64,000 bases of DNA from a virus (IMGVR_UViG_3300024344_003081), one strand, 5' to 3'. Shown: positions 39,396-57,614, counted from the stretch's first letter. A program made the numbers and translations. Notes: a model not told the origin generated them from the letters alone.

Positions 39396-40060
39396 TATTT
39401 GATAAACCTGTAATAGATCCAAGAGTTAACCAAGGAGATGGACCACCAAAATATATTCCTGGTCAATTATTAGATAAAAAAGATTTAACAGTATATCAAC
39501 ATAAAGATACTACAATGGTTGTTTTAGATTATGATCAAAAAATTAATGTTGATGTGATGAATGAAGTTTTATATAGAACTATAGAGGGTGGAGCAATAAG
39601 AAAAAATGAATATGTAATTATAGTATCTAAAAAACAATTAAATAGAAAAATGTTTAGAAATGTAATAGATAAAATTCTATATTCACAAGATTTGAGATAT
39701 GATTATATGTCAAGTCTTCCAAAGAATTTACATAATAATGTAATAGATTTTAAAGATACTAAAGAATTAACGGGGGACTTAAATAAATCTACATACGAAG
39801 AAGAAGGCACTTTAAGTTGGGAATTACTTAGTCCGGTTGAACAAGGTTGTATAATATTTGAACAATTTTATGGTGATGATCCTGAAATTGTCGCAGGTAA
39901 AAATATAAGTGCTGAAGAATGGATATCTGCAAATAGAAATGTTTGGCATCTTGTAGATAGAGCAACAGATGAACAGAGAAAAGAGTGGTTAGAAAAGTTC
40001 TATAGATATAAAAAAGTGTATGATACATTTCCAACCGCACCACTTATTACGGAGCCATAA
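39392..40060 (+). CDS. Hypothetical protein in the radical SAM operon
   Basis: 222 aa ORF with an ATGA overlap. Confidence 0.65.
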   Translation: MIFDKPVIDPRVNQGDGPPKYIPGQLLDKKDLTVYQHKDTTMVVLDYDQKINVDVMNEVLYRTIEGGAIRKNEYVIIVSKKQLNRKMFRNVIDKILYSQDLRYDYMSSLPKNLHNNVIDFKDTKELTGDLNKSTYEEEGTLSWELLSPVEQGCIIFEQFYGDDPEIVAGKNISAEEWISANRNVWHLVDRATDEQRKEWLEKFYRYKKVYDTFPTAPLITEP

Positions 40061-40323
40061 TGAATAAAGATGAACGAAAAGAAATTTCAGAAAAGGCGGC
40101 CCGTGAAGGTGATATCAATGCAATAATAAAACAATTGCAAGATGAAGAAACTCCTGATAAAGTTCAAGCTAGAGATAAAAATTTACTCAAGAGAAGTTTC
40201 GAATATGAATCCGGAGAAGAGGGAATAGGTCATGAGCCATTATTTAAATATAATTTAGATTTTGCAGGATTAATGAGAAATATGTCCTACATAATTAAAA
40301 AATATAAGGAAAGAAAAAAATGA
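40060..40323 (+). CDS. Hypothetical protein in the radical SAM operon
   Basis: 87 aa ORF with TAATG and ATGA overlaps. Confidence 0.6.
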   Translation: MNKDERKEISEKAAREGDINAIIKQLQDEETPDKVQARDKNLLKRSFEYESGEEGIGHEPLFKYNLDFAGLMRNMSYIIKKYKERKK

Positions 40324-41696
40324 GATCCCGTTCAGATAAAATTTGTCCAGAATTTAGTAAATTGGATGATATTATTGATTATGAAAGAGGATTGAATGAT
40401 GGAGAGAGTATATGCAAACCATATACAACCCATAAGATTCATGAATTGGCAACTATTCAGGAACAGAGTCTTGCAAAAAATCCAGATTCAAAAATTAGAG
40501 AAATTTCGAATAGAAAATTAAATGAAGTAGTAAAAGAAAATTTTGAATCTGTTTCAACAGATAGACATCGACATCGTATTGAAGATTTAAAACAGGGAAA
40601 AATAAAAACTGAAGAAGCAACTGTTAGTGAAATTTATGATAGACATTTTACACATGGAGAAAATGAAAAAACAAGAGTTGCACATGGTGGTGCAATTCAT
40701 TTATTTTATATGACAAGTCAATGTAATTTAGATTGTAATTATTGCTATCAGCATTTAGAAGGAAGACCTAAACATTTACCCGAACCTCCTTTAATAGCCA
40801 ATCTTATCGATAATATTATGGAATCAGATAGACCTGATGAACAAACTCTTTATTGTATTTTTGGTGGTGAACCTTTGATGGAATGGGAGAATTGTAGATT
40901 TTTAATGGATTATGCTTATAAATCAAAACATAATTGTCATTTTAATATAACATCAAATGGTATATTATTAAGTAAGCCTGCTTTTTTTAAAAAAGTGACC
41001 ACATATTTAGAAGAGCATCCTGAAATAAAACAAAGAGTTTCTTTTGATATTAGTTTTGATGGAGTTGGAAGTCAAGATAGAGTTTATTATTCTGGGAAAG
41101 ATTCAACTCTTGATGTATTAAAATGTTTTGGTAATATTATGGAATACAATAAAGACAAATCCCGTGAAGATCAAATACGGTGGAGATGTAGATATACTAT
41201 TCATAGATCAAATGTAATGTGTTTTGCAAAAGATATGTTTCATATAGCAACGACATATGGACCAGATAGAGTTGTAACATCTTTAGATAATAAGTGTGCA
41301 GAAGGCGAAACGCCAGAAGATGAAGCAAAAATTAAATGGTTATTAAAAGAACAAATTGATTGGCTTAGAGAAAAATGGAGAAGAAATTTAATAAATTATC
41401 CTGTGTGTAGTTTATTTTGTGATATGTGTAATTCATGTGGAGAAAAGAAAGATCATAGATTTTATTATAGTCAACAAGGTCTTGCTAGAATTCAAAATGT
41501 GAATGTAAGAGTTGGAGAAGAGTTCTTTGATTTTCCAGATGCAGATCCCGAAATAGAAAGAGAATTACCTAAAGCTGGGTTACCAAAAACAATGTTTGAT
41601 CGTTTAGGTATAGTTGATACCTTTGGTCAAGGATCTGGAACAGAACATTTACAAGAAACAAAATTTGCGGAAGACGGAAAAAGTCTTTCTTGTTAG
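40320..41696 (+). CDS. Radical SAM protein 3 (N-terminal extension, atypical C-terminal Cys cluster)
   Basis: CNLDCNYC, IFGGEPL, TSNG and SFDISFDG motifs; C-terminal CSLFCDMCNSC. Confidence 0.88.
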   Translation: MRSRSDKICPEFSKLDDIIDYERGLNDGESICKPYTTHKIHELATIQEQSLAKNPDSKIREISNRKLNEVVKENFESVSTDRHRHRIEDLKQGKIKTEEATVSEIYDRHFTHGENEKTRVAHGGAIHLFYMTSQCNLDCNYCYQHLEGRPKHLPEPPLIANLIDNIMESDRPDEQTLYCIFGGEPLMEWENCRFLMDYAYKSKHNCHFNITSNGILLSKPAFFKKVTTYLEEHPEIKQRVSFDISFDGVGSQDRVYYSGKDSTLDVLKCFGNIMEYNKDKSREDQIRWRCRYTIHRSNVMCFAKDMFHIATTYGPDRVVTSLDNKCAEGETPEDEAKIKWLLKEQIDWLREKWRRNLINYPVCSLFCDMCNSCGEKKDHRFYYSQQGLARIQNVNVRVGEEFFDFPDADPEIERELPKAGLPKTMFDRLGIVDTFGQGSGTEHLQETKFAEDGKSLSC

Positions 41697-41704
41697 GAGA
41701 TATT

Positions 41705-42436
41705 ATGGCTGAAGAACATGAATTGATTAAAAAACACGCTAATGAAGCAATACAAGCATTAGTTCCATTATTAGATAATGAAAAAACACGCCATATAGGT
41801 CATGTATTATTAAAAGCAATTGACTTGGGTTTAGGTATGTTGTCAGCAGATGCTAAAGGAGAGTCTAGTGGAGCGAACAATCAAATAAGAGTAAGTGGGG
41901 CTTCTCCTCCAGGAACCGTTCCTCAAAATTTTCAGAAAGATATAGAGCAAGAAAATAAGGTACAGGGATTAGTAGATGAAACATTAAAGGAATTAGAAAT
42001 GATGGATAATCATGAATCTAATCCTGTAACTACAGACAAAGATGGTAATGAAATAGAATATGTAAAAGGAATGCTTTGTAATTGTCAATTTGCTTCTGAA
42101 TTTCACAAATACTGTGATAATCAATGTAAAGAGACTTTGATTAAAGCAGAAGGAAATCCAAAAGAATATATTAAATTTATTGATAAAGAAAGAAAAGAAC
42201 AAGATACTAAATCTCTTGATGAGGCAATGGATGAGGTTACAGGCTTTATTGATACAGAATTGGGTATTGGAGTTTCTCCTAGACCAAAACCACAACAATC
42301 ACAGCAACAAGCTCCTCAAAATGATGTACAGCAAGAAACTCCTTTAAATGAAGAAAACAAGCAATTTGCGTTAGATCCTAGTCAACCTGTTATTATGCCT
42401 GGTGAACCAACTGGACTTGAAAATGACAGTAGTTAA
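41705..42436 (+). CDS. Hypothetical acidic protein with a Cys motif
   Basis: AGGAGA RBS before the ATG at 41705; contains CNCQF...YCDNQC and a Q/P-rich tail. Confidence 0.6.
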   Translation: MAEEHELIKKHANEAIQALVPLLDNEKTRHIGHVLLKAIDLGLGMLSADAKGESSGANNQIRVSGASPPGTVPQNFQKDIEQENKVQGLVDETLKELEMMDNHESNPVTTDKDGNEIEYVKGMLCNCQFASEFHKYCDNQCKETLIKAEGNPKEYIKFIDKERKEQDTKSLDEAMDEVTGFIDTELGIGVSPRPKPQQSQQQAPQNDVQQETPLNEENKQFALDPSQPVIMPGEPTGLENDSS

Positions 42437-42677
42437 TTTATCCTCTATTAATATTATTGCAGTTCTTACTAAGATAAAAAAATTAGAAGAAAGTAATATT
42501 TCAAATAAATATTCTCGTATAGTTGATTTATTAGATTCTACAAAATCAAGATTTGATGTTTCTCTTGATTCATATAAAAATGTGGAATTATTAGCAGATC
42601 ATATAGAATTTTCAACAACGGGCTTAATTCTTTGGCAAAGAATGAGAGATAAATATAACGACTTAGCGGACAAATGA
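42423..42677 (+). CDS. Hypothetical protein
   Basis: Short ORF; the track start is 42402, and an in-frame ATG at 42423 was chosen. Confidence 0.45.
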   Translation: MTVVNLSSINIIAVLTKIKKLEESNISNKYSRIVDLLDSTKSRFDVSLDSYKNVELLADHIEFSTTGLILWQRMRDKYNDLADK

Positions 42678-43657
42678 TGGCATTCAATGATATACCTGGA
42701 AATTCAACATGGAAAACTGTAAAATGTGATAACGAAATTGTTTCACTTGCTAATGGAAGTGAGCCTGATAAATTTGATCAAATTTTAGATTTATTAAAAT
42801 TAAATAAACAATATTATTTAGAAAATGGAACTACAGAAAACGAATGGCTTGATCGAGTTTCGGGCTTTGCTTGTCAGAGACCATATGTATCAACAACGAA
42901 TGAAGAACGATCTAAAGGAGAAGAATTGGGATTTTATGAAGATTTAGGTAGCCCTGATTGGGAGGCTTCTCAGAATGATTCCAAGATTACTGACCTTGCT
43001 AATGGAAGCGAATCCGATAAATATGATCAAATTTTAAATATATTAAAAACAAATAAAGAATATTATTTAAAAACTGCAGTAACCGAAGATCAATGGACTG
43101 ATAGAGTTTTATATTTTGCATATCAAAGAGGATCTGATGTTAGTGGTGATCCATTTATTGTAGATGATGCACCAGTATTACCTCTTGACTATATGGATTC
43201 TAAAGATATATCATGGTTTAATAGTGATATGAGATGGGAAATCGCAATGAAAATTTTAATTAATGCAATTGATGAAAAAGGAAAAACTTGGTATACAACT
43301 GAAACTGCTCAAACTCCTGATGGTAATATAGCTGGACCAAATGATTCTCAAATTTCTAGTTTAAGTTGGTTGCCATCAAATTGTATATCATTACATAATA
43401 AACTTATAAGTTCTACTTATTCTAAGTTCATATATATTATCAAGTTAAGTAATGTTCATTTGAGATATTCTGAACCATCAAAAATATTTGATGAAATTGA
43501 TACCGAAAACACTACTGCCATTTCAAATCTCAATACATCTCAATTGACAGATTTATTAGCATATGTTAGAGAAGCATATGTAAGTCGTCCAGACGATAAA
43601 ACAAATGAAAATTTTGAAGCCGCATGTGAAATGCTAGAGTTTGATATGGCACAATAA
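42674..43657 (+). CDS. Hypothetical protein with an internal duplication
   Basis: 327 aa; LANGSEPDKFDQIL...WLDRV recurs as LANGSESDKYDQIL...WTDRV. Confidence 0.65.
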   Translation: MMAFNDIPGNSTWKTVKCDNEIVSLANGSEPDKFDQILDLLKLNKQYYLENGTTENEWLDRVSGFACQRPYVSTTNEERSKGEELGFYEDLGSPDWEASQNDSKITDLANGSESDKYDQILNILKTNKEYYLKTAVTEDQWTDRVLYFAYQRGSDVSGDPFIVDDAPVLPLDYMDSKDISWFNSDMRWEIAMKILINAIDEKGKTWYTTETAQTPDGNIAGPNDSQISSLSWLPSNCISLHNKLISSTYSKFIYIIKLSNVHLRYSEPSKIFDEIDTENTTAISNLNTSQLTDLLAYVREAYVSRPDDKTNENFEAACEMLEFDMAQ

Positions 43658-43673
43658 TATATTGAGGAATATA

Positions 43674-44057
43674 ATGGTTACTAGAGAAGAAATTGAACAA
43701 AAGTGTAAAGACGCTTTTGATGAAGCAGGCATGGGCCTTTCCTTCCCAGAAATTACACCAGAAAAAAATATAGCACAGGATCTTGATATTGATTCAATTC
43801 ATATTTTAGAGACTATGATTCTTATTGAAGATGAATTTGATATTATGTTAGATGCTGAAGAATTTCAAAAAGCAACTACTGTAAGGGATCTTTATGATTT
43901 AGTTGAAGTAAAAATAAAACAAGGAGCTAAAATTAAAGAACTTGAAAAAGAAGCAGGCGATGATGAAAAAGCTAGAAACAGATTATTAGAACAACTAAAG
44001 AAAGATAAAGAAGCAGGTACAGGGGTTTATGAAATGAGCCAATATGAGAAAAAGTAA
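43674..44057 (+). CDS. acpP: Acyl carrier protein with a charged C-terminal extension
   Basis: DLDIDSIHILETMILIEDEFDI...TVRDLYDLV, the phosphopantetheine-attachment DSI motif plus helix II pattern; GAGGA RBS before the ATG at 43674. Confidence 0.85.
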   Translation: MVTREEIEQKCKDAFDEAGMGLSFPEITPEKNIAQDLDIDSIHILETMILIEDEFDIMLDAEEFQKATTVRDLYDLVEVKIKQGAKIKELEKEAGDDEKARNRLLEQLKKDKEAGTGVYEMSQYEKK

Positions 44058-45168
44058 AATATCAGGACTTGGTGACTATGGTGTATTTATAGATGATGTA
44101 TCATTAGCAGAAATGTCTGATAATGATTGGATGCAATTAGGAAAAGAACATCTTACAGATTTAGTTACAATTATTAGAAATGTAGATATTCAACCATCTG
44201 AATTTGAACGTAAGATGTATTTATGGGGCGCCCCATATGTTATAGATGGATATCGTATTAAGAAAAAATATGAAAAAAAATTAGGAATATCTAATTTATA
44301 TACATTATTCAAACGTGATCTTTTAGAAGAAGAAGATCGCCGACATGCAGAAAATTTAACGTGGTATATTGCGGCAGGGGATAATTTTACAGAAGAAGAG
44401 GTTCCTGCTGATTCTCATTTAATTCGTATAACTGGTATGAAAGAGAATGGGAGAAGTATGGGAATGTTTGCTGAAGGAGAATTGGGCTGGCATTCTAATG
44501 AAGCGGGTTCGCTTTGCTTTACTCCTGGTGTTGCACTCATGGGCATAAAAGGAATGGTGGGGTCTTCAACAGGATTTGTTTGTTCTGCAACTTGGTACGA
44601 AAAGCAAAGAGATTCTTTTAAAAGAGAATTAGATGATATGACTGTTATTTTTAAATATCAAAATTATGAAACTGCTCCTGAATTAAATAAAGATCAAGAT
44701 GATTCATTTCGTTGGAATCAAACGTTTGAACCGATTGAACTTCCACTGGTTATTACAACCCCTGGAGGAATAAAAGGTCTGCATTATTCTCCTGGTACAG
44801 TAGAGAGAACTAAATTTTTAGATGATTTAGACAAAGAATTATTTGTAGATGAATATACTTATCATCACAAGTATGAAAGAAATAATGATATATTACTTTT
44901 TGATAATTGTATTACTTTGCATAATAGACAAGGATCCCCCATTGAACGAGTGGCTTATCGAGAACCATGTGATTATGCTCAGTTAATTCCTGATGGATAT
45001 AATTATTATTCCCAAGAGCCTTATAAAACACAATTTGAAGAAATGAGAAAAGACATACAGGAAACTCTTGGTGTTAAATCTATAGCTGAACAGAATATGG
45101 TTTTTAAAAAATATATTCAACCAAAATTCCCCAAAAGAGAATGGAAAAACAATGATCTAGTGAGGTAA
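44044..45168 (+). CDS. TauD/TfdA-family Fe(II)/2-oxoglutarate dioxygenase
   Basis: GMFAEGELGWHSN...ALMG...TGF...W...HPLV-like IELPLV, and ILLFDNCITLHNR (distal His, Arg). Confidence 0.75.
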   Translation: MRKSKISGLGDYGVFIDDVSLAEMSDNDWMQLGKEHLTDLVTIIRNVDIQPSEFERKMYLWGAPYVIDGYRIKKKYEKKLGISNLYTLFKRDLLEEEDRRHAENLTWYIAAGDNFTEEEVPADSHLIRITGMKENGRSMGMFAEGELGWHSNEAGSLCFTPGVALMGIKGMVGSSTGFVCSATWYEKQRDSFKRELDDMTVIFKYQNYETAPELNKDQDDSFRWNQTFEPIELPLVITTPGGIKGLHYSPGTVERTKFLDDLDKELFVDEYTYHHKYERNNDILLFDNCITLHNRQGSPIERVAYREPCDYAQLIPDGYNYYSQEPYKTQFEEMRKDIQETLGVKSIAEQNMVFKKYIQPKFPKREWKNNDLVR

Positions 45169-45169
45169 A

Positions 45170-45787
45170 ATGAAAAAAATGATGATAACAGGTGTGAGTT
45201 CTGGTTTAGGAAAAGCACTTTTTGAATATTATGATGGAAAATATATTCAAAAATATAAAGATGTAATAGAAGTTGAAGGTCACAGTAGAAGATATAATCA
45301 ACATGATATTCAAGACATTAAAGATTGGTTTGATCCTGAAGCAGATATTTTTATCAATAATGCATATAGTGATCTGAGATGGTGGACTCAAACGAATGCA
45401 TTATTATATTCTTTTTCAGTTTGGGCAGATAAACCCGATAAACATATTGTGTCTATAAGTTCAATTGCACAGGAAAAAGATACTGATGGATGGCCTATTG
45501 GTCATAGTAGATATTCAGTAGGAAAAATTTCTCTTGATAAAATGAATTTAGACTGTCATGAAAAAGTAGCAAAAAAACATGGATGTAAAGTTTCTAATTT
45601 AAGACTTGGTTGGGTAGAAACACCTAGAACAACAAGAATAAGTACTGTAGTAAGTCGTTTATATGATGTTGATCCTGTTAAGCAAACAACTGGAACAATG
45701 TTGAGTACAGATGAATGTATAGATGCTATAGACTTTATGTTAAATCATAGTGGAAGAGTAAGAGAAATGACATTGGAGGCAAAATGA
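45170..45787 (+). CDS. Short-chain dehydrogenase/reductase
   Basis: ITGVSSGLG (TGxxxGxG), FINNA, SISS and catalytic YSVGK (YxxxK). Confidence 0.85.
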   Translation: MKKMMITGVSSGLGKALFEYYDGKYIQKYKDVIEVEGHSRRYNQHDIQDIKDWFDPEADIFINNAYSDLRWWTQTNALLYSFSVWADKPDKHIVSISSIAQEKDTDGWPIGHSRYSVGKISLDKMNLDCHEKVAKKHGCKVSNLRLGWVETPRTTRISTVVSRLYDVDPVKQTTGTMLSTDECIDAIDFMLNHSGRVREMTLEAK

Positions 45788-46812
45788 GCAAGGTGTTACA
45801 AATAGCAACTAGACATCCTGAAAATGAACATCATAATAAAGATTTTGCCGCAGAATTAAAATTATGGTGGGAAGAAAAAGGATATTCGGGTAGAGTTTTT
45901 GATAGATATCTTCCATTAACGGGTGTTGAAACTCGATATGCTTGTTATAATCGAGAGGAGATGAGAGAAAAATCTCAAACGTTTACTCAAAAAAATAAAA
46001 CATTTAATGAAGTTGCTATAAAATTATCATTAGAATGTGTAAAGGAATTGGAATTTAATCCACAAGATGTTTGTATGTTAACATCAACTACTATGACAGG
46101 TGTTGGTATTCCTACGATTCCCCATACAATATTAAAAGAATTTAATTTTCCAGAATCAATGATTAAAATACCCATGTTTGGTCTAGCATGTAATGGAGGC
46201 ACTCATATTTTAGGAATAGCAAATGAATATTTAAAAGGTAATCCAGACAAGTTAGTTATAGCAATGACTAACGATTTATGTTCAATGAATTTGTGTCCTG
46301 AACATGCTACATTAACAACTGTTTTTGGATCTGTAATATTTGGTGATGGAATTAGTGCTATTTTAATTGCAGGAGATAATTATAATGATGCACCAGGATG
46401 GAAATTACATAAACATGTGTCATATGTTTTACCAGATACAGAAGATTATATTACTCTTCAAGGATTAAGTGAAGGATTATTATATCATGTAGAATCAACT
46501 AAATTGCAAGAAATACCAAAAGCATCTGCGGCATTTAATGATAAAATTAAAGAATTTATTGAAGGTCATACTATTAATAATTGGATATGTCATCCAGGAG
46601 GAAAAATTGTTTTAGAAAATACTGTAAAGGGGCTTAATTTACCTGAAGGTGCTTTGGATTCATCTTTTGAATTATTTCGAAATTTTGGAAATATGTCTGC
46701 AACTTCAGTAATAAAAACTTTACAGCATGATTTTGATAAAGATGGCAAAACAGTTATGATTTCTTATGGGCCAGGTTTTCAGGTTGATGTTATATTATTA
46801 GAAAAAATATGA
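45784..46812 (+). CDS. Type III polyketide synthase (chalcone/stilbene synthase family)
   Basis: Triad motifs GLACNGG (Cys), WICHPGG (His) and FGNMS (Asn); also IFGDG, LTSTTMTG...P and C-terminal SYGPGF; 342 aa. Confidence 0.88.
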   Translation: MSKVLQIATRHPENEHHNKDFAAELKLWWEEKGYSGRVFDRYLPLTGVETRYACYNREEMREKSQTFTQKNKTFNEVAIKLSLECVKELEFNPQDVCMLTSTTMTGVGIPTIPHTILKEFNFPESMIKIPMFGLACNGGTHILGIANEYLKGNPDKLVIAMTNDLCSMNLCPEHATLTTVFGSVIFGDGISAILIAGDNYNDAPGWKLHKHVSYVLPDTEDYITLQGLSEGLLYHVESTKLQEIPKASAAFNDKIKEFIEGHTINNWICHPGGKIVLENTVKGLNLPEGALDSSFELFRNFGNMSATSVIKTLQHDFDKDGKTVMISYGPGFQVDVILLEKI

Positions 46813-47237
46813 TTTGGGGAAAAGATAAACACGATATTCGTAATAGAATTTTGTCGATGACAATAGAAAATGGCTTGGGTATAGATTTACAAACAATAGA
46901 ACCCATTCAAAAAATATATGATAAATGGGGTGATAAATTTGTTAATAAAATATTAACAGATATAGAAAAGAAAAATGCACCAAATCCCATAACTGCAAAA
47001 TATTTAACAAAATGTTGGTGTGTTAAAGAAGCATTTTCAAAAGCAATTGCATCTCCATATTTGAGACTCGATGTTAGTTATACACATTTAAAAGCTAGAG
47101 GAGCAAGATTTCCTGTTGTTCATTGTGTTATGGAACCCAAAGATTGGAATTTGAAACGACAAGATATTAGACTTTCTTTATCTGATACAAAAGATTATGT
47201 GGTCGCAATAGTTATTACAGGAGTTAATCCTTTGTGA
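46809..47237 (+). CDS. acpS: Holo-ACP synthase (AcpS-type 4'-phosphopantetheinyl transferase)
   Basis: GLGIDLQTI, WCVKEAFSKA and RLSLSDTKDYVVAIV correspond to the AcpS motifs GIDI, AKEAxxKA and SISH. Confidence 0.82.
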   Translation: MIWGKDKHDIRNRILSMTIENGLGIDLQTIEPIQKIYDKWGDKFVNKILTDIEKKNAPNPITAKYLTKCWCVKEAFSKAIASPYLRLDVSYTHLKARGARFPVVHCVMEPKDWNLKRQDIRLSLSDTKDYVVAIVITGVNPL

Positions 47238-47959
47238 TAAAAACCTTAGACTATACAATCCCTTCTGAATGGAATAATAAAAATATTATTTCTAGTTTTA
47301 TTGATTCGGGATTTTTAGTAATTAATCATCCCTTCATAGATATGAAAGAAGGTTTACTTTCTTTTAAAGAAAAACTTAAAATACAATTAAACGAATTAGA
47401 AGAAACTGAAGAGGGGTATAGAAAAATTATATTAAAAAATTGTGATAATATTAAACAAAGATTTTTAAAAGTGGGATGTGAAATTTTATATGTTATTGAA
47501 GAATTTTTAAATGTTCCTCCAAATTCTATTGCAATGAAACATGCTGATTCTGATAATGCTTTGAGATTGGTTAAATATTATAAAGATCAGAAAGGATCAA
47601 TAAGAGTAGGAGAACATTGTGATTTTGGTACTTTAACACTTGTTCATGTTTGTGATCCTGTAGAAGAATATGAAATATTTTATGATGATAAATGGAGAAC
47701 AATAAATCATCCTAGTGATGATTTTTTGATTGTGAATATAGGTGATTTTATGCAGATTTGGTCAGATAATAAATTAAAATCTACTCCGCATAGAATAACG
47801 AATAAAACAAAAAAAGAAAGACACAGTATGATTATGTTTATGGATGCTGGTAATCATACTATTAAAGGAATTGATCATGCTACTTGGAATAAAAAAAGAA
47901 TACAAATGGCTCATACAGGAGTAACATATTATCATGACAAAGGTATCGTACAAATATAA
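47234..47959 (+). CDS. IPNS-like Fe(II)/2-oxoglutarate oxygenase
   Basis: LRLVKY, GEHCDFGTLTL (HxD), IVNIGDFMQIWS, STPHRI and RHS (RxS); GTGA overlap with acpS. Confidence 0.85.
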   Translation: MIKTLDYTIPSEWNNKNIISSFIDSGFLVINHPFIDMKEGLLSFKEKLKIQLNELEETEEGYRKIILKNCDNIKQRFLKVGCEILYVIEEFLNVPPNSIAMKHADSDNALRLVKYYKDQKGSIRVGEHCDFGTLTLVHVCDPVEEYEIFYDDKWRTINHPSDDFLIVNIGDFMQIWSDNKLKSTPHRITNKTKKERHSMIMFMDAGNHTIKGIDHATWNKKRIQMAHTGVTYYHDKGIVQI

Positions 47960-48692
47960 AGTATGGTTTTTAATATTAATGAATCATGTTCTAATGATAA
48001 TAGGAATTTATTATGCTATAACAGAATCATCATATTATTTGTTTATTGTACTGTTTATTGGACTTTTATTGAGTAAGTTGGGTGGAGAAATAGGAACTCA
48101 TAGATATCTTTCTCACCGATCTTTTAAAACTGGACCCATAAGAAATTTTATATTGCAAATTATGGGATTAATAAATTGTAATGGTTCACCTATGACTTGG
48201 GCTATATTGCATAGATATCATCATATGAATGCAGATAAGCCAGAAGAACCCCATTCTCCAAATATAATACCATGGTGGAAGTGCTGGTTGACTTTGTGGA
48301 ATCCTATATCTCCTAATCCAAAAGAGTATATGGATTTATTGAAAGATCCATTAGTTAAAAACATACACAAATATTATTTTTATATGATAATATTGATGTT
48401 TGGAATATTATATTTGTTAGACTGGAGATTACTTGTATTTTTAGTTTGTATTCCTTCTGTAATAACCTTTCATGGATCAACTTTATTAATAAATACTATT
48501 TCTCATAAATGGGGATATCGTAATTTTGATACTGATGATAATAGTAGAAATAATACGTGGATTAATTTTTTAATATGGGGAGGGGGCTTACATAATAATC
48601 ATCACGCTTATCCTGAAAGATATAATGAAAAAGTAACAGATAACGAAAGGGATCCTTGTGGCTGGATTATTGAAAAATTTTTTAAAATATAG
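47934..48692 (+). CDS. Membrane fatty-acyl desaturase 1 (Delta9/OLE1-like)
   Basis: His boxes HRYLSH, HRYHH and HNNHH; hydrophobic TM segments; DxPHSP motif region. Confidence 0.9.
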   Translation: MTKVSYKYKVWFLILMNHVLMIIGIYYAITESSYYLFIVLFIGLLLSKLGGEIGTHRYLSHRSFKTGPIRNFILQIMGLINCNGSPMTWAILHRYHHMNADKPEEPHSPNIIPWWKCWLTLWNPISPNPKEYMDLLKDPLVKNIHKYYFYMIILMFGILYLLDWRLLVFLVCIPSVITFHGSTLLINTISHKWGYRNFDTDDNSRNNTWINFLIWGGGLHNNHHAYPERYNEKVTDNERDPCGWIIEKFFKI

Positions 48693-49452
48693 TAGTACTT
48701 GGCATACTCATTTAGGATTTCAAATATTATTTCATATTGTAGCGGCATTAGGAATTGTCTATAGTTCTTGGCATTGGTTATGGTTAAGTCTTATTGGAGT
48801 AATATTATTTCGACATATAGGGGGTGAAATAGGCGCCCATAGATATTATGCTCATAGAAGTTTTGAAGCAAAACCTTGGGCTCAAAAATTAATGATTATA
48901 TGTGGACTTTTTTTATATCAAGGATCGCCATATTCTTTTATTCCAATTCATAGATTACATCATCAAAAATCAGATACAATTGATGATCCTCATTCTCCCC
49001 ATTTTTTAAATTTTGTAAATGTGTATTTTCCTAGTGCGAACCAGTATTATCGTGAACCCGTGGATAAATCATATTTTGCAGATTTAATTAAAGATCCCGT
49101 TTTACAATTTTTACATAGAAATTATTTAATTATAGTAACTATACCATTGATTATAACAGCATTAATAGATTGGAGAATACCTGTTTTTCTATTTGCTATT
49201 CCAGTTGTAATTACATTTCATTCTGCGGGATTGGGAAATACTATAGGTCATTTATATGGATATAGAAATTTTGAAACAACTGATAAAAGTCAAAATTCTA
49301 CATGGGTGAACATATTAACTTTAGGATCAGGATTACATAATAATCATCATGCATATCCTGAAAGATATAATTATAAAATGACAAATAAATGGTATGAAAG
49401 AGATGATTTAAATGTTTTTTTAATCGAAAAATTATTAATGGAGAAAAAATGA
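48658..49452 (+). CDS. Membrane fatty-acyl desaturase 2
   Basis: HRYYAH, HRLHH, HNNHH. Confidence 0.9.
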   Translation: MAGLLKNFLKYSSTWHTHLGFQILFHIVAALGIVYSSWHWLWLSLIGVILFRHIGGEIGAHRYYAHRSFEAKPWAQKLMIICGLFLYQGSPYSFIPIHRLHHQKSDTIDDPHSPHFLNFVNVYFPSANQYYREPVDKSYFADLIKDPVLQFLHRNYLIIVTIPLIITALIDWRIPVFLFAIPVVITFHSAGLGNTIGHLYGYRNFETTDKSQNSTWVNILTLGSGLHNNHHAYPERYNYKMTNKWYERDDLNVFLIEKLLMEKK

Positions 49453-50219
49453 AAATCATTTCAAAATATAATAATACCTGGATGGCATATTTTGGATTTC
49501 AAATTTTATTTCATATATTAACTGTTGTTGGATTGTTATATTCATCATGGCATTGGCTGTGGTTGTCTTTAGTGGGCATTATTTTTTTCAGACATATTGG
49601 TGTAGAAATTGGCGCCCATCGATATTTTGCACATAAAAGTTTTAAAGCAAAACCTTGGGCTAAAAAATTAATGGCCATTTGTGGACTTTTTGCATATGGA
49701 GGAACACACTATGCTTGGATTCCTTTTCATAGACTACATCATCAAAAATCAGACACTAAATTGGATCCCCATTCACCACATCACATGAGTTTCATAGATG
49801 TTTATTTTACTAACTGGCGAGTTGAAGTGTTAGATGTTAAATTGTATCAAGATTTAATAGAAGATAAATTTTTACAATTTTTACATAGAAATTATTTAAT
49901 TATAGTAACTACACCATTAATTTTATTTGCATTGATAGATTGGAGAATATCTGTTTTTCTATTTGCTATTCCAAGTGCATTTGCACTTCATTCTGGGGGG
50001 CTGGTAAATTCTATAGGGCATTTATATGGATATAGAAATTTTGATGATACAAACGATAAAAGTCGAAATTCTACATGGGTGAATATACTAACTTTAGGAG
50101 AAGGTCTGCAGAATAATCATCATGCACATCCTGAAAGATATAATTTTAAAATGTCTAATAGATGGTATGAGACAGATTTTTTGAACGTTTTTCTAATAGA
50201 AAAGTTTTTAAAGGCGTGA
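49449..50219 (+). CDS. Membrane fatty-acyl desaturase 3
   Basis: HRYFAH, HRLHH, QNNHH. Confidence 0.88.
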   Translation: MKIISKYNNTWMAYFGFQILFHILTVVGLLYSSWHWLWLSLVGIIFFRHIGVEIGAHRYFAHKSFKAKPWAKKLMAICGLFAYGGTHYAWIPFHRLHHQKSDTKLDPHSPHHMSFIDVYFTNWRVEVLDVKLYQDLIEDKFLQFLHRNYLIIVTTPLILFALIDWRISVFLFAIPSAFALHSGGLVNSIGHLYGYRNFDDTNDKSRNSTWVNILTLGEGLQNNHHAHPERYNFKMSNRWYETDFLNVFLIEKFLKA

Positions 50220-51082
50220 TAATGTTTAAATATGAGATGACACGAAATGCAATTATTATTGGGATGATGATTCATTTATCTTTTCATGTTTTATTAGTAT
50301 ATGGAATAATAACTTTTTCTTTACATTGGTTGTGGTTAACATTAATAGGAACCATTTTAATTCGACATATAGGAACTGAAATAGGCGCTCACAGGTATTA
50401 TACTCATCAAAGTTTTAAAGCAAATCCGTGGGCACAGTGGCTTATGTCTATTTTATTTGTATGGAATTATGGAGGTAGTATGTTAGCATGGTGTCCTGGA
50501 CACAGTTATCATCATAGATTTTCTGATAGTAAACATGATATACAATCTCCACATTATATAAAAAAATTTAAAGATTTTGTTAGAGTTGTTTTTCCTGCAG
50601 TATTCGCATATGAAAAATTATATAACGATGAAATTGATAAAATGAGAATGAAAAGATACATGGAATGGTTTCATGAAAAGAGGGGTTTTATGGAATTAAT
50701 GAAGAATAAACCAGCGAGATTTACTCATAATTATTATTGGTTGATTGTATCTCTTCCAATTATAATTTTACCAATAATTGATATTCGTTTATTAATCTTT
50801 CTTATAGCAATACCATGTGTAATTAATTTTTGGTCTTTGGCTCTACTAAATTTTTTTGGACATATTTCTACTATTGGAAGTTATAAAAATTTCGAAACTG
50901 ATGAGTGGGGTAACAAGGAACGTTCAGTTAATACTCTATGGTTAAATATATTTACTGGGGGAATGGGACTACAAAATAATCACCATCATAATTCAAGAGC
51001 CTATAATTTTAAAATGAATGATAAATGGCATGAAACAGATTTTTTGAATGTATTTTTAATAGAAAAATTTTTAAAGGTTTAA
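50216..51082 (+). CDS. Membrane fatty-acyl desaturase 4
   Basis: HRYYTH, HSYHH, QNNHHH. Confidence 0.85.
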   Translation: MIMFKYEMTRNAIIIGMMIHLSFHVLLVYGIITFSLHWLWLTLIGTILIRHIGTEIGAHRYYTHQSFKANPWAQWLMSILFVWNYGGSMLAWCPGHSYHHRFSDSKHDIQSPHYIKKFKDFVRVVFPAVFAYEKLYNDEIDKMRMKRYMEWFHEKRGFMELMKNKPARFTHNYYWLIVSLPIIILPIIDIRLLIFLIAIPCVINFWSLALLNFFGHISTIGSYKNFETDEWGNKERSVNTLWLNIFTGGMGLQNNHHHNSRAYNFKMNDKWHETDFLNVFLIEKFLKV

Positions 51083-51083
51083 C

Positions 51084-51923
51084 ATGTTCAAATTTACAGC
51101 AAATAGGTTTGCAGTTATTATGATTTCTATTATTCATACGTTATTTCATATATTAACTGTATATGGATTAATAACTTTTTCTTTACATTGGTTATGGTTA
51201 TCTTTTATTGGTGTTATATTATTACGACATATCGGTACAGAAATAGGAAATCATCGATATTTTTGTCATAGGAGTTTTGAAGCAAAACCTTGGGCAGAAT
51301 GGCTTATGATGATTGGATATGCATTTTCGTATGGAGGAAGTAATATAGCATATGCTATAGGTCATAGATGGCATCATGCTACATCTGATACTGAAAAAGA
51401 TCCAATTTCTCCTCATAACATTAAGAATGTTAAAGATGTTTTTAGAATTATAACTCAAACTTTAGGAGAACTTCAACAGGAAGAACGTAAAGATTGGAAT
51501 ATTTTTAGAAAAAGTGAAAATAAATTTTGTAAAAAATTATTTAAAAATAAAGTAGCAAGATTCAATCATGAATATTATTGGTTAATAGCACTTTCTCCCA
51601 TTGTAATTTTATCAATAATCGATATTCGTTTGTTAATATTTTTTATAGCATTACCTTGTGTTATAACTTTTTGGTCTGGAATGTTAGCACATTTTTTAGG
51701 ACATGTAATGTTATTTGGTTGTTATAGAAATTATGAAACTACAGTTGATGATCTATCGGTAAATAATCCATGGTTAAATATAATAACAGGAGGATTAGGA
51801 ACATTACATAATAATCATCATGCACATCCTGAAAGATATAATTATAAAATGTCTAATAGATGGTATGAGACAGATTTTCCCAATGTGTTTTTAATAGAAA
51901 AGTTTTTAAAACATGATAGATAA
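51084..51923 (+). CDS. Membrane fatty-acyl desaturase 5
   Basis: HRYFCH, HRWHH, HNNHH. Confidence 0.88.
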   Translation: MFKFTANRFAVIMISIIHTLFHILTVYGLITFSLHWLWLSFIGVILLRHIGTEIGNHRYFCHRSFEAKPWAEWLMMIGYAFSYGGSNIAYAIGHRWHHATSDTEKDPISPHNIKNVKDVFRIITQTLGELQQEERKDWNIFRKSENKFCKKLFKNKVARFNHEYYWLIALSPIVILSIIDIRLLIFFIALPCVITFWSGMLAHFLGHVMLFGCYRNYETTVDDLSVNNPWLNIITGGLGTLHNNHHAHPERYNYKMSNRWYETDFPNVFLIEKFLKHDR

Positions 51924-52707
51924 CCTTAATAAATTATTTGTTAAAGATTTTCAAATTAGTATATTACAATATGTGTGGATTTATACCTTTCCTATCATAT
52001 CTGTATTGGGAATAATATATTCGTCATGGCATTGGTTGTTTTTAACATTAGTGGGTATAATTTTGTTTAAAGATATTGGAGGCGAAATAGGAGTCCATAG
52101 ATACTGGACACATAATTCATTTAAAGCGAAACCTTGGGTACCAAAATTATTTTCAATTTGTACAATTTTATGCTATGCTGGTAGTCCTCTTACTTGGTCA
52201 TATGTTCATAGACATCATCATGAGCATTCTGATACTGAAAAGGATGTACACTCTCCCCACCACAGCAAATGGTATCATATCTGGAGAGGATATTGGGATT
52301 TTTCAAAAATAGAAAAGTTTGATCCTAGATTCGTAGCAGATTTGTTGAAAGATGAATCAATAAAATTTGCACATCGATATCATTTATTAATTCAAATATG
52401 CGTAATCATAATAACTGTGTCTATAGATTGGAGAATATTTGTATTTTTATTTGCTCTTCCTAGTGCAATAACATTTTGGTTTGGATCTATAGCTGTTAAT
52501 ATGATGAGTCATTTGTGGGGATATCGTAATTTTGAAACACCTGATAATTCAAAAAATAATATACTTGCTTGTATTCTTGTTTCTTCTGGAGGATTACAAA
52601 ACAATCATCATTATAATCCTTCTTCATATAATTTTAAAATGTCAGATAGATGGTATGAACAAGATATGAAAAATGTGTTTCTTATTGAAAGATTTTTTAA
52701 AGCATGA
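51913..52707 (+). CDS. Membrane fatty-acyl desaturase 6
   Basis: HRYWTH, HRHHH, QNNHH. Confidence 0.88.
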   Translation: MIDNLNKLFVKDFQISILQYVWIYTFPIISVLGIIYSSWHWLFLTLVGIILFKDIGGEIGVHRYWTHNSFKAKPWVPKLFSICTILCYAGSPLTWSYVHRHHHEHSDTEKDVHSPHHSKWYHIWRGYWDFSKIEKFDPRFVADLLKDESIKFAHRYHLLIQICVIIITVSIDWRIFVFLFALPSAITFWFGSIAVNMMSHLWGYRNFETPDNSKNNILACILVSSGGLQNNHHYNPSSYNFKMSDRWYEQDMKNVFLIERFFKA

Positions 52708-53468
52708 TTAATTATTATATTAAATCTAAGCGAACTCCCTATTTTTTCTTAATTAATTTAATTGCTCATTTAGCAATTATACCCGCAATTCTTTATGGCG
52801 AATGGTGGATGTGGATATTAAGTTTGATATGGTGGCAGTGGATAGGATGTACAGCATATACTACTGGGTATCATAGGTATTATACTCATAAAAGTTTTAA
52901 AGCACCGCTTTGGTATGATTATTATTTTAATTTTTTTTCTTTATTTGGTAATCCAGGACCAGTTCTTATATGGAGCGGAACACATAAATTACACCACAAA
53001 TATAGTGATACGGAATTAGATCCACATAGTCCTAAACATAAAGGATTTTGGAATGTGTGGACAAGTTTTTGGGGAATGGGAGTGTTTACAATAGATCCTC
53101 CTACAAGAGAAGATTTAAAAGATTGGTTAGAAGAAACAAAAGATCCTATTGCTAAATGGTTTTATGATAATTATCTTTCTTTAACAGTTATTATTATGAT
53201 TGTATTGTTATTCATGGGTCCTTGGTTTTTTATATTTGGTTTTTGTATTCCTACATGTTTAATACTTCATGGTTCGGGTATTATTAATGCATTTACTCAT
53301 AAGAATGGAAAACCAGAGAATAAAAATTTAGTGGCATTGATAACCGCTGGAGAAGGATGGCATTTGAATCATCATGAAGATCCATCTAATTATACGACAA
53401 GAAAAGAGTCGTATAAATGGTGGCAAGTTGACTTAAATGGTATATGGATCAATTTAATTAAAATATAG
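52704..53468 (+). CDS. Membrane fatty-acyl desaturase 7
   Basis: HRYYTH, HKLHH, GEGWHLNHH. Confidence 0.9.
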   Translation: MINYYIKSKRTPYFFLINLIAHLAIIPAILYGEWWMWILSLIWWQWIGCTAYTTGYHRYYTHKSFKAPLWYDYYFNFFSLFGNPGPVLIWSGTHKLHHKYSDTELDPHSPKHKGFWNVWTSFWGMGVFTIDPPTREDLKDWLEETKDPIAKWFYDNYLSLTVIIMIVLLFMGPWFFIFGFCIPTCLILHGSGIINAFTHKNGKPENKNLVALITAGEGWHLNHHEDPSNYTTRKESYKWWQVDLNGIWINLIKI

Positions 53469-53519
53469 GCTCGATATATATTAACACCAGAGAATGGAAA
53501 CGAAAGTTCCGCTTTGGAC

Positions 53520-53592
53520 AGGGGTGTAGTTTAATTAAAACGGCCAACAGGGTGTTGGGAAGTTGTGAGTGTAAATCTCGCCACCCCGACCA
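53520..53592 (+). tRNA. Non-canonical tRNA-Pro(GGG)-like RNA with encoded CCA
   Basis: Manual cloverleaf: acceptor (A)GGGGTG/CACCCC(G)-A-CCA, D stem GTTT/AAAC with a 5-nt loop, anticodon arm CCAA-CAGGGTG-TTGG, T stem GTGAG/CTCGC with loop TGTAAAT; 73 nt. Confidence 0.6.
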
Positions 53593-53612
53593 AAATTAAA
53601 AAAAAGTATGTT

Positions 53613-54419
53613 ATGATTACAATTAATACATGGAAAAATAATTATATTATTGCACATGATCCTCATTCAAAAATTGAAATAGATTCTTTGAATAAATTAT
53701 TTGTTTCATTAGTAGATAAAATTGGGGGTAGTGATCAAGATTCTATTGAACGAGCAAAGAGAAAAGGTGAATATTTATTAATTGCTGGACATGCAAATAT
53801 AAAATATGAATTGTTAGCAAGAACTTTTCAAGATTTTCTTAAACAATTTGAAATTGGTTATGATTGGAGAGGTGAAAGTTCTGCTGATAATATATCATTA
53901 TTTAATGAATTAAATATTTTACCAACAGAAGATCCTTCTACAGGTGCTATAGGTGGAGGAGTGCCTGATGATAATCAGAATGAAATAGAATTAGGTATTC
54001 TTCCATTGGTTACTATTCTCAATACATTTGATGGAATTAGAACTTTTGGTTCATGTGAAGGACACTATGTTAAGTCTGATTTTCTCAATGCGTATATATC
54101 ATGGACTGCTTGCAATATAAATGGACTAAATTATTCTACATTTCTTTTAAAAAATGCAATTAATGGTGTTTGGGAAAAAAGAAAATTAAATGATGATGAG
54201 AATTTTAATATAAATCAAATAATTAATAGAATTACATTAAGTTTTAATACAGGATATTGGAAGCCTGCACGTTTAAGGACTGCTCCATTACCAGGTGAAA
54301 ATTTTTATCATTTTCGTTTTGATTATGAATTTAAATTTCGATCACTTGTTTTTAATATAATAAATGATATTGCTGAACATATTATAAATGAAAAATATGA
54401 ATTGTCAAAGGAGATATAA
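53613..54419 (+). CDS. Hypothetical protein with a TYW3-like TxxSCxGH motif
   Basis: LNTFDGIRTFGSCEGH. The track's GTG start at 53565 lies inside the tRNA-like element, so the ATG at 53613 is preferred. Confidence 0.55.
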   Translation: MITINTWKNNYIIAHDPHSKIEIDSLNKLFVSLVDKIGGSDQDSIERAKRKGEYLLIAGHANIKYELLARTFQDFLKQFEIGYDWRGESSADNISLFNELNILPTEDPSTGAIGGGVPDDNQNEIELGILPLVTILNTFDGIRTFGSCEGHYVKSDFLNAYISWTACNINGLNYSTFLLKNAINGVWEKRKLNDDENFNINQIINRITLSFNTGYWKPARLRTAPLPGENFYHFRFDYEFKFRSLVFNIINDIAEHIINEKYELSKEI

Positions 54420-54682
54420 TGGCTAAAATTAGTGAAATATCTAATGAGTTGAAGAAAAAACTTGAAGACACAATGCAGGGTGGATATACAGGAGGCTGTC
54501 AAGAGTGGATTAATTTAATTGCAACTGCTGAACCGTCAGAAAATGAAAAAGAAGCAAATATGTTAAAAGCGTTAAATGATTTAACAACACAATTTACAGC
54601 AACGATGTCTGGAAATGCACCAGGTGATCTGACAATTTGGTATCAAGAATTAAACTTTGCTATGAATGAATATTTGACTTAA
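54419..54682 (+). CDS. Hypothetical protein
   Basis: 87 aa; AGGAG RBS and TAATG overlap. Confidence 0.6.
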   Translation: MAKISEISNELKKKLEDTMQGGYTGGCQEWINLIATAEPSENEKEANMLKALNDLTTQFTATMSGNAPGDLTIWYQELNFAMNEYLT

Positions 54683-54689
54683 TAATCTT

Positions 54690-55373
54690 ATGAAAATAGA
54701 ATTTTATGGTTCTAGTATAATAGGATCAAATACTTTTCAAATAGAAAAGCCTAAAGCATTCTATGATTTGATTCTTGATCATTTCAATGCTTCTTCATTA
54801 AATTATATGATAGCACAATGTTCAGAAGAAAGGATTCTTTACAATTTAAAAAAGACCAGTGAAATTGATATAGCAATAATCTTTCATTCAACTCCTCAAT
54901 TTATATATTTTCCAAATTTTACTAGAGATTTTATTTATATGAATGATGATAGAGTTGATGATTGGGATAATCGGCAACATTTTTTAGATTATGTTGATGC
55001 TTTTAAACAAAACAGAAAAGACATAGTTACAAATTTTAGTGTACCTACAGAACCTATTGATGCATCAATTATAAAAGATTTCATGAAATTACATTTTAAT
55101 AGAGATGTAAATAGAAATAGATTTCATGGAGCATTATCTTTAATTGATGAATATGTTTATTCAAAAAAAATACCAACAATACACGTTATAAATGATCATA
55201 TTCCTGGTTGGTTTACTTTTAAATCGGGCATTATAGATGAAGATATTTGTGAAATCGAAAAAGAATATAGTGTATCATTCAATAAATCTGTAAATGGAAT
55301 AAGTGAAGAGGGAAATAATCTTATTTTTAATAAATTAATTGGTTTGATCCAAAGTACAATACAAAGGACATAA
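54690..55373 (+). CDS. Hypothetical protein, possibly a degenerate SGNH-fold protein
   Basis: N-terminal IEFYGSS, internal SEERIL and IIFHS, C-terminal NGISEEGN. Confidence 0.45.
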   Translation: MKIEFYGSSIIGSNTFQIEKPKAFYDLILDHFNASSLNYMIAQCSEERILYNLKKTSEIDIAIIFHSTPQFIYFPNFTRDFIYMNDDRVDDWDNRQHFLDYVDAFKQNRKDIVTNFSVPTEPIDASIIKDFMKLHFNRDVNRNRFHGALSLIDEYVYSKKIPTIHVINDHIPGWFTFKSGIIDEDICEIEKEYSVSFNKSVNGISEEGNNLIFNKLIGLIQSTIQRT

Positions 55374-56966: not shown

Positions 56967-57614
56967 ATGCATTTAATTACAGAACTAAACGAAAATATAG
57001 AGTACGTTACAGAAGAAGGAAAAGACGGGAAAAAATCTCTATATATCCAAGGACCCTTTATGATGGCAGAAGTGAAAAATAAGAATGGAAGAATTTATCC
57101 TAAAGAAGTTCTTATGAAAGAAATAAAAAGATATAACGAAAGTTATGTCGGAAAAAATAGAGCATTCGGGGAACTGGGTCATCCAGACGGTCCTGGTATA
57201 AATTTAGAACGGGTATCACACATGATTACTGAATTAAAAGAAGATGGTAATAATGTTGTCGGTAAAGCGAAGATTATTGATACCCCATATGGCAAAATTG
57301 TGCAAAATCTTATCGAGAATGGCGCACAATTAGGCGTATCTTCTAGAGGAATGGGTTCTTTAGAAGAAAAAGGCGGAGTAAAATACGTAAAAGATGATTT
57401 TTATTTAGCAACTGCCGCAGACATAGTTGCTGATCCTTCTGCTCCTGAAGCCTTTGTTCAAGGTATCATGGAAGGAAAGGAATGGGTTTGGGAATCAGGT
57501 GTTCTTAGAGAAAAGGTGATTTCAGCTATTCACAAAGAAGTTACCAAAGCGCCGTCTAAAAAACTAGAAAATGTTAAGTTAAAAGCATTTAATAGCTTTC
57601 TTTCAAACCTATAA
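56967..57614 (+). CDS. gp21: Prohead core protease gp21
   Basis: KNKNGRIYP, AFGELGHP and LGVSSRGMGSL (catalytic His/Ser), DIVADPSAPEAFV. Confidence 0.95.
   Translation: MHLITELNENIEYVTEEGKDGKKSLYIQGPFMMAEVKNKNGRIYPKEVLMKEIKRYNESYVGKNRAFGELGHPDGPGINLERVSHMITELKEDGNNVVGKAKIIDTPYGKIVQNLIENGAQLGVSSRGMGSLEEKGGVKYVKDDFYLATAADIVADPSAPEAFVQGIMEGKEWVWESGVLREKVISAIHKEVTKAPSKKLENVKLKAFNSFLSNL

Follow-up and report, generated by a model that had tools for sequence, protein, structure and literature searches.

A 64,000-nucleotide stretch of viral DNA (IMGVR_UViG_3300024344_003081; hereafter the window) carries, at positions 43674-53468, a cassette of 13 co-oriented, mostly overlapping genes. In order, these encode one acyl carrier protein (ACP), one TauD-like oxygenase, a short-chain dehydrogenase/reductase (SDR), a type III polyketide synthase (PKS), an AcpS-type phosphopantetheinyl transferase (PPTase), a 2-oxoglutarate (2OG) oxygenase and seven desaturases. 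A preliminary description, prepared by a model from the sequence, had reported 13 consecutive genes here and had named these enzymes, the 2OG oxygenase as IPNS-like. All of the open reading frames (ORFs) are present on the plus strand, as are the other genes of the window given below, and the six four-base ATGA or GTGA overlaps that it listed (45784, 46809, 47234, 49449, 50216 and 52704) are real. The enzyme assignments hold as well. In profile searches, PP-binding, TauD, Chal_sti_synt_N and _C, ACPS and 2OG-FeII_Oxy all exceeded the Pfam gathering score, as did FA_desaturase in five of the seven desaturases.

Carrier protein, phosphopantetheinyl transferase and polyketide synthase

The ACP (43674-44057) carries a C-terminal tail rich in lysine and glutamate and matches PP-binding (PF00550) over the cut-off, at 31.5 bits. 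A GAGGAA ribosome-binding site lies 5' of its ATG, and the DSI motif with Ser41 is invariant across 10 phage orthologues. The AcpS-type 4'-phosphopantetheinyl transferase (46809-47237) matches ACPS (PF01648) at 43.3 bits; its acpS-type matches in NCBIfam all lie under the cut-off, and no equivalog cut-off was reached by either protein. No AcpS homologue was found among 50,697 deposited phage records. By domains and motif, the two proteins form a carrier/PPTase pair, and phosphopantetheinylation of the phage ACP is predicted.

The PKS gene (45784-46812) matches both halves of the type III family over the cut-off, at 33 bits for Chal_sti_synt_N (PF00195) and 41.9 bits for Chal_sti_synt_C (PF02797), and its product has the motifs LACNGG, CHPGG and GNMSA. 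The preliminary description had noted a retained Cys-His-Asn triad. This is borne out in an alignment of 101 type III PKSs, where Cys136 and Asn303 never vary and the conservation of His270 is 90% or more. It had also conceded that the protein might group with FabH instead. The protein sides with the type III PKSs: the NCBIfam DpgA model matches at 8.7e-22 versus 4.5e-5 for the best FabH model, and the nearest solved structure is Mycobacterium tuberculosis Pks11 (3e-36), with THNS, CHS and CylI among the other PDB matches. An AlphaFold2 model built on the 101-sequence alignment reached a pLDDT of 93.8 (an earlier one from 12 close sequences, with a pLDDT of 59.8, was discarded). Foldseek superposed it on Pks11 with a TM score of 0.90-0.91, and all of the 50 best PDB matches were type III PKSs. 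The gene product is a type III PKS by homology, motifs and fold, for which condensation and cyclisation activity is predicted.

The phage PKS clade is isolated. In a profile search of 1.84 billion representatives, the clade scored 686 bits to itself and the next protein 167 bits, and a profile scan of 185,579 species genomes returned no relative. The nearest cellular relative, at 27% identity, resides in a bacterial operon of an FAD monooxygenase, a type III PKS and an ICMT-type methyltransferase, which has the alkylresorcinol/alkylquinone layout. A 4818-residue metagenomic protein (P0021) was rejected as the top relative: it is an unrelated polyprotein at 21% identity which tops the representative search because its score sums over its repeats. 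Its architecture of 12 tandem type III PKS domains is odd in its own right.

Relatives and assembly integrity

A search for syntenic clusters in viral catalogues, as the preliminary description had suggested, recovered relatives of the cassette. Orthologues of the PKS fall into 20 clusters (~240 sequences, 68-83% identity, all metagenomic) in a word-indexed search. Related loci, referred to below by their L numbers, lie on four IMG/VR contigs, on 19 contigs from JGI metagenomes, one of them 204 kb long, and on TARA and Logan contigs. The same phage genes flank the cassette wherever the contigs extend far enough. ACP, SDR, PKS and AcpS constitute an invariant core of four overlapping genes in all relatives, always accompanied by at least two desaturases. 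The number of desaturases is two, three or five in the relatives, and the window alone has seven, the most of all. The oxygenases vary, the 2OG oxygenase being usual and the TauD-like enzyme frequent. In one locus, the place of the latter is taken by the alpha subunit of a Rieske-type ring-hydroxylating oxygenase (L005:14348-15256), and in another a FabA/ApeI-like dehydratase gene separates a desaturase gene from that of AcpS (L008:8400-8831).

Tandem paralogues and a metagenomic origin are classic sources of misassembly, and the contigs of some runs do break within the desaturase array, so that two kinds of artefact have to be weighed, a chimeric join with host DNA and a tandem array that was collapsed or expanded in assembly. 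The cassette has a GC content of 0.27-0.32, uniform with the phage. A near-identical stretch occurs in 20 public runs from at least six studies, and contigs from four runs of three studies tile the array with 0-5 mismatches, several pieces spanning the junctions of adjacent desaturase genes. As these independently assembled contigs cover the array including most gene junctions, the cluster is not chimeric. The recurrence of the phage flanks in all four contig collections and the lack of any PKS relative among the species genomes scanned further argue against a join with host DNA. An artefact is effectively refuted, and copy number is the only part that long reads might reopen.

The desaturases

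All seven desaturases possess the three histidine boxes (HRYxxH, H[RSK]xHH and [HQ]xNHH) at canonical spacing and two long hydrophobic hairpins. Those that pass the FA_desaturase gathering score do so with 56-61 bits. With 252-288 residues, they belong to a short (~250 residues) delta-9-like family known from marine metagenomes (2,588 matches); they are shorter than full-length enzymes (at least ~300 residues) and fall outside the characterised DesC/SCD clade. The paralogues are old, with pairwise identities of 28-69%, and a maximum-likelihood tree resolves three orthologue groups: A (Des1), B (Des2 and Des3 with the derived Des4, Des5 and Des6) and C (Des7).

Des1 (47934-48692; FA_desaturase 58 bits), with boxes HRYLSH, HRYHH and HNNHH and two hydrophobic hairpins, has orthologues in all relatives. 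In group B, Des2 (48658-49452; 60.7 bits) is 69% identical to Des3 and groups with copies of L008 and L021; Des3 (49449-50219; 56.8 bits; third box QNNHH) is the orthologue of the lone B-type gene in L002, L003, L005 and L033. Among the derived members, Des4 (50216-51082; 56.1 bits; boxes HSYHH and QNNHH) has an orthologue in L021 (98/98 support), and Des5 (51084-51923) joins the Des4/Des5 clade with a second L021 copy (100/99 support). Because Des4 and Des5 group with L021 copies, the expansion of the array is older than this phage. Des6 (51913-52707; 57.8 bits) is sister to the Des4/Des5 clade and is alone in having no orthologue in any relative. Des7 (52704-53468; boxes HRYYTH, HKLHH and HLNHH) is the most divergent, at 28-33% identity to the other six, and has orthologues in L002, L003 and L005. 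Des5 and Des7 have no Pfam match; both match NCBIfam DesA-family models below the cut-off (1.2e-15 and 1e-14, respectively), and Des5 too has all histidine boxes.

Two deviations were observed in the boxes and their surroundings. The first residue of the third box is glutamine instead of histidine in Des3, Des4 and Des6, and the histidine of the DPHSP motif after the second box is missing in Des4 (DIQSP) and Des5 (DPISP). Together, these replacements suggest diverged chemistry among the paralogues.

The SDR and the oxygenases

The SDR (45170-45787; 205 residues) stays below the Pfam cut-off for adh_short (18.2 versus 26.6 bits), and no sequence match was found among solved structures. It is a short classical SDR because the motifs TGxxxGxG, NNAY, Ser97/98, Y115xxxK119 and PGWVxTP (PGxxxT) are invariant in nine orthologues, and it is probably NADP(H)-dependent.

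The TauD/TfdA-family oxygenase (44044-45168; Pfam TauD 42.7 bits) is 34-36% identical to the 'taurine catabolism dioxygenase' of Prochlorococcus phages P-HM1 and P-HM2. Its metal motif reads H150-x-N152...H293, in place of the HxD/E...H facial triad. Asn152 aligns to the iron-binding aspartate of solved TfdA and RdpA (WHSN versus WHSD/WHTD), and the distal His293 and the arginine residues are kept. The HxN motif is also found in the cellular homologues of the enzyme in L011 and L013. The activity may be altered, perhaps through an open coordination site as in halogenases, or it may be weakened. The second oxygenase (47234-47959; 2OG-FeII_Oxy 62.2 bits) is a canonical Fe(II)/2OG enzyme of the small-molecule (IPNS/DOXC) type. 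It has an invariant H128-x-D130, H186 and R196-x-S198, which supply a facial triad and the 2OG-binding arginine, and its nearest solved relatives are the natural-product tailoring oxygenases TraH, SpoC and TropC.

Parts of this tailoring set occur elsewhere in the company of desaturases. Scanning the species genomes with an SDR profile returned six loci, four of which are Bdellovibrionales metagenome-assembled genomes with one to three short desaturases within 10 kb; two of these four loci also have a TauD homologue. On a complete Bdellovibrionales chromosome (L045:6709-10567), a short desaturase, an Asp/Asn-beta-hydroxylase-like gene, two further desaturases and an SDR homologue follow one another, and no PKS or ACP was found within 10 kb of this operon. 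It looks like an uncharacterised lipid-modifying module common to predatory or marine bacteria and marine phages. Comparable cellular sets were seen in L043, L044, L047 and L013. Since such PKS-less sets of SDR, desaturases and oxygenase-type genes are found in Bdellovibrionales, on other cellular contigs and in Pelagibacter phage Mosig, the set is a recurrent module in its own right, which the phage lineage has joined to ACP, AcpS and PKS. Among deposited phages, a tblastn search with Des2 returned only Mosig and an Acinetobacter phage, at 27-29% identity.

Phage setting and the upstream genes

The window belongs to a marine T4-like myophage, as PHROGs matches to baseplate wedge, large terminase, tail sheath, portal, scaffold and major head protein show, in agreement with the T4-like virion module of the preliminary description. 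The major head protein shares 64% of its residues with its counterpart in Pelagibacter phage HTVC008M, 63% with the one in OM43 phage Melnitz and ~60% with those in cyanomyophages, and is equally near to SAR11, OM43 and cyanobacterial myophages. Between the portal gene (22731-24413; PHROG portal 1.5e-202) and the prohead protease gene (56967-57614; Pfam Peptidase_S77) lie ~32 kb of extra genes, all on the plus strand. These comprise two collagen-repeat fibre genes, a cysteine-heptad peptide gene with three radical S-adenosylmethionine (rSAM)/SPASM enzymes, and the 13 genes of the cassette. The upstream flank (portal and both fibre genes) spans 22731-34555, and the downstream flank (prohead protease, followed by PHROG matches to scaffold and major head protein) spans 56967-60266.

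The block directly upstream (36075-43657) contains the peptide, the three maturases and five conserved unknown ORFs. The 197-residue peptide (36075-36668) ends in ~12 C-N-C-(N/D)-F-C-P heptads in translation. The three maturases (36678-37964, 38169-39395 and 40320-41696; Pfam Radical_SAM and SPASM) have as best family matches PapB-like and other SPASM-type maturases of peptides that are made by ribosomes and modified post-translationally (RiPPs), all under the NCBIfam cut-off. Every related locus long enough to include this region has the cysteine-repeat peptide, the three rSAM enzymes and several of the unknown ORFs upstream of its lipid genes. What is inherited together extends beyond the 13 genes and takes in 36075-43657.

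T4-type late-promoter motifs (TATAAATA) at 35535 and 55378 bracket the tightly packed block. A promoter and terminator scan of the DNA found sites no more numerous than in shuffled sequence and for this reason was left unused. Judged by the packing of the genes and these late-promoter motifs, the cassette is probably expressed together with the late virion genes. ARAGORN found no tRNA or tmRNA across the window (1-64000), the gap at 53469-53564 included.

As a side observation, collagen triple-helix repeats make up most of the two giant fibre proteins (1679 and 1576 residues; 24460-29499 and 29825-34555; Pfam Collagen 8.8e-87 and 3.2e-80). Their genes have a GC content of 0.39-0.45, well over the phage average of ~0.30, and stand directly upstream of the biosynthetic block.

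Proposed pathway and alternatives

Most likely, the cassette makes an unsaturated, oxidised polyketide lipid during infection. AcpS would turn the phage ACP into its holo form, and host enzymes would load a host-derived acyl chain onto it. While the chain is carried on the ACP, or after it has been handed over from it, the membrane desaturases (three orthologue types, in seven copies here) would bring in unsaturation or related oxidations, and the oxygenases may also modify the chain. The type III PKS would then add malonyl units to the acyl starter and release an alkylpyrone or alkylresorcinol-type amphiphile by cyclisation, and the SDR and the two 2OG-type oxygenases would tailor the product. 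We assign a probability of about 0.5 to such a carrier-protein-based specialised-lipid pathway with release by the type III PKS, and our best guess for the product is an ACP-templated unsaturated lipid of the alkylpyrone or alkylresorcinol type. In support of this pathway, the best match of the PKS in both sequence and fold is Pks11, an enzyme primed by long-chain acyl groups, followed by THNS and CylI. Further, searches with the desaturases retrieved annotated loci of fatty acyl-AMP ligase (FAAL), two desaturases and ACP, with or without PKS, thioesterase and rubredoxin, which are a precedent for ACP-bound desaturation. Another precedent is the polyyne 'desaturase triad', in which desaturases act on ACP-bound chains (PMC9828172). 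Also in favour are the intact catalytic motifs, the operon layout around the nearest cellular PKS, the four-gene core with its two or more desaturases in all relatives, the likeness of the 2OG oxygenase to tailoring enzymes and the tight packing of the block between the two late-promoter motifs.

Several observations weigh against the proposed pathway. Pfam and NCBIfam scans of all ORFs in 34573-57614 recognised no acyl-AMP/ACP ligase, malonyl-CoA:ACP transacylase or thioesterase, and neither a ferredoxin or rubredoxin electron donor nor an acyltransferase or exporter. The missing functions must therefore come from fatty-acid synthesis and electron carriers of the host, or from ORFs without an assigned function, and the 'near-complete pathway' of the preliminary description was too strong a term for a set of identifiable genes that lacks these enzymes and an exporter. 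A complex prediction for PKS and ACP gave a score of 0.30 (mark 0.32), which is no verdict for or against binding. In the tree, the desaturases lie outside the 100/100-supported clade of DesC1 and the enzymes of alkyne and polyyne loci, so that phylogeny is silent on whether their substrate is an acyl-ACP or a lipid; an assignment as polyyne or alkyne enzymes is rejected at clade level, although the mechanism may be analogous. The TauD-like enzyme is without the canonical carboxylate ligand. As the SDR, desaturases and TauD-like genes also occur together where no PKS or ACP is present, they may act on ordinary membrane lipids instead of a PKS product. Finally, three low-depth contigs (165-245 nt, 96-100% identity) from two marine RNA libraries match the PKS gene (46528-46772) and the ORFs u284 (53590-53754) and u222 (39733-39929). 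These hint at transcription in nature but may reflect DNA carry-over.

In an alternative reading, the desaturases, SDR and oxygenases would remodel the membrane or envelope lipids of the infected cell, in the manner of single cyanophage delta-9 desaturases, and the ACP, AcpS and PKS would merely raise or divert the acyl supply or make an unrelated product. Cyanophage vFADs were experimentally shown to be delta-9 lipid desaturases (PMC5776448). The short desaturases of the cassette carry the full delta-9 signature of histidine boxes and topology, and desaturase sets with an SDR and a TauD or Asp/Asn-hydroxylase (LpxO-family) gene exist without a PKS in Bdellovibrionales and Mosig. However, an adjustment of membrane fluidity hardly calls for seven paralogues as divergent as these (28-69% identity). 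The SDR gene invariably sits between those of ACP and PKS, with codons that overlap, and an ACP of the phage's own, supplied along with a PPTase, points to a dedicated thiotemplate. We consider membrane remodelling unlikely as the role of the cassette. 

A different product is suggested by the genes upstream. An ACP-built polyketide or fatty chain could be joined to the rSAM-cross-linked cysteine-heptad peptide, or else to one of the virion proteins, the neighbouring collagen-like fibres for instance, resulting in a lipopeptide or a lipidated structural component. Hybrid RiPP-lipid natural products, namely lipolanthines, goadvionins and selidamides, do exist. The RiPP-like and lipid halves are adjacent, co-oriented and co-inherited in every locus spanning both, and they change position jointly with respect to the u180-u194-u134 genes. 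An unknown family has paralogues in both halves, given that u284, downstream of the desaturases, is a paralogue of the protein encoded between rSAM2 and rSAM3 in L002 (L002:3977-4798; 26% identity, 7e-13, SCEGHY motif). The cassette also stands in a virion-gene operon, after the two collagen-repeat fibre genes. On the other side, family scans of the ORFs of the locus recognised no GNAT, condensation-domain or other acyltransferase, adjacency within a hypervariable phage region is weak evidence for a common product, and type III PKSs normally set free small molecules. A hybrid product is improbable on present evidence. More doubtful still is its most elaborate form, a late-infection product in which an rSAM-cross-linked cysteine-rich peptide or virion fibre bears a polyketide lipid with several unsaturations, assembled on the phage ACP, the lipid being tuned between lineages by the number of desaturases (two to seven). 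If true, this would make it the first lipopeptide produced by a virus or the first tailed-phage virion decorated with lipid.

Comparison with known systems

The proposed release of an alkylpyrone or alkylresorcinol-type lipid from the ACP-templated pathway can be compared with characterised type III PKSs such as Pks11 and Pks18 of M. tuberculosis, SrsA and the ArsB/C type. The phage PKS shares their fold and Cys-His-Asn triad, with Pks11 as the best match, but at only 22-27% identity. In the srsABC and ars operons, the PKS is accompanied by an SrsB-type methyltransferase, an SrsC-type flavin hydroxylase or type I fatty acid synthase partners, none of which is present in the window; the phage instead has ACP, AcpS, SDR, 2OG oxygenases and desaturases, on a phage of the lytic type. 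It is an srsABC-like operon, with methyltransferase and flavin enzyme adjacent, that houses the nearest cellular relative of the phage PKS.

A dedicated ACP together with two to several membrane desaturases of the delta-9 superfamily is shared with JamABC and with the Pgn and Cay polyyne cassettes. The polyyne triad comprises three desaturases, a count also found in relatives of the phage cassette, and some of the bacterial cassettes feed a PKS. However, polyyne and alkyne cassettes have FAAL, thioesterase and rubredoxin, which are lacking from the scanned phage ORFs, and their desaturases form a clade with DesC1, outside of which the ~250-residue phage enzymes lie.

A parallel in biosynthetic logic is offered by two phenolic lipids. 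In cylindrocyclophane biosynthesis, CylA and CylB charge an ACP with a fatty acid, which is then modified by CylC, and the type III PKS CylI forms the resorcinol. Similarly, in sorghum, sorgoleone is made by the desaturases DES2 and DES3, then an alkylresorcinol synthase and then tailoring enzymes. In both cases, as proposed for the phage, the acyl chain is modified first and then passed to a type III PKS to give a phenolic lipid, and CylI is among the top sequence and fold matches of the phage PKS. The phage differs in having no FAAL, type I PKS modules, halogenase, O-methyltransferase or P450.

With respect to phage-encoded lipid genes, the cyanophage vFADs occur as single genes, and their action on C16 membrane lipids has been demonstrated (Roitman et al. 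2018, PMC5776448). They resemble the present desaturases in being delta-9-type membrane enzymes carried as auxiliary genes by marine T4-like phages, whereas the cassette sets two to seven divergent paralogues beside ACP, AcpS and PKS. The sole other phage record with a type III PKS among the 50,697 is that of Streptomyces phage ZL12, whose enzyme is 22% identical over 71% of the length. ZL12 is a pseudo-lysogenic actinophage, unlike the marine T4-like carrier described here.

Novelty and significance

The window has no DNA match among the deposited phage records. The preliminary description had stated that single phage desaturases are known and that a phage type III PKS cluster of this form is not, and no published description of such a phage cassette was found, with incomplete coverage of the literature. 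A survey of biosynthetic gene clusters in phages reported that such clusters are extremely rare, almost all of them bacteriocins and mostly in temperate phages; the one type III PKS that it lists is that of ZL12 (bioRxiv 10.1101/2020.10.01.322628). A metagenome study of pelagimyophages described radical-SAM cassettes in hypervariable regions and mentioned no PKS. The possibility that the cluster is already common and characterised does not overturn the finding: it is recurrent in metagenomes, but no paper describing such a cluster was found. The component families are all known; the architecture and the T4-like marine phage as its carrier are new.

To date, the lipid genes reported from phages have been single desaturases (PMC5776448). 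If the proposed pathway is correct, abundant marine T4-like phages would be shown to carry, in a virion operon, a multi-enzyme carrier-protein polyketide-lipid pathway with its own ACP and PPTase, one that turns up repeatedly in ocean metagenomes and whose desaturases vary in number. Should a product be found, it would represent a new class of virus-made marine metabolites, which might serve to rewire membranes, to defend the cell or lysate chemically or to decorate virions. For engineering, the cassette offers a compact, portable toolkit of ACP, AcpS, type III PKS and desaturases. It also points to an uncharacterised family of short delta-9-like desaturases which, together with SDRs and TauD-like oxygenases, is found in marine and predatory bacteria and in pelagiphages.

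Accessory open reading frames

Downstream of the desaturases, the ORFs u284, u87b and u227 (53565-55373) are often, though not always, kept with the cassette. The first of these, u284 (53565-54419), is 56-68% conserved in L002, L021 and L029. It was considered as an eighth desaturase and rejected, since it has no histidine boxes and aligns poorly. Protein-atlas look-ups returned no usable family for u284 and u327. Within the upstream half of the window, u222 (39392-40060) matches the u284 family at its N-terminal part only (2e-4). The ORF u227 (54690-55373), present only in the relatives L008, L021 and L023, encodes 227 residues with an N-terminal G-S-S motif and resembles phage DUF6071/Lipase_GDSL clusters by language-model features only (0.95-0.98); it could be an esterase or an acyl-transfer enzyme.

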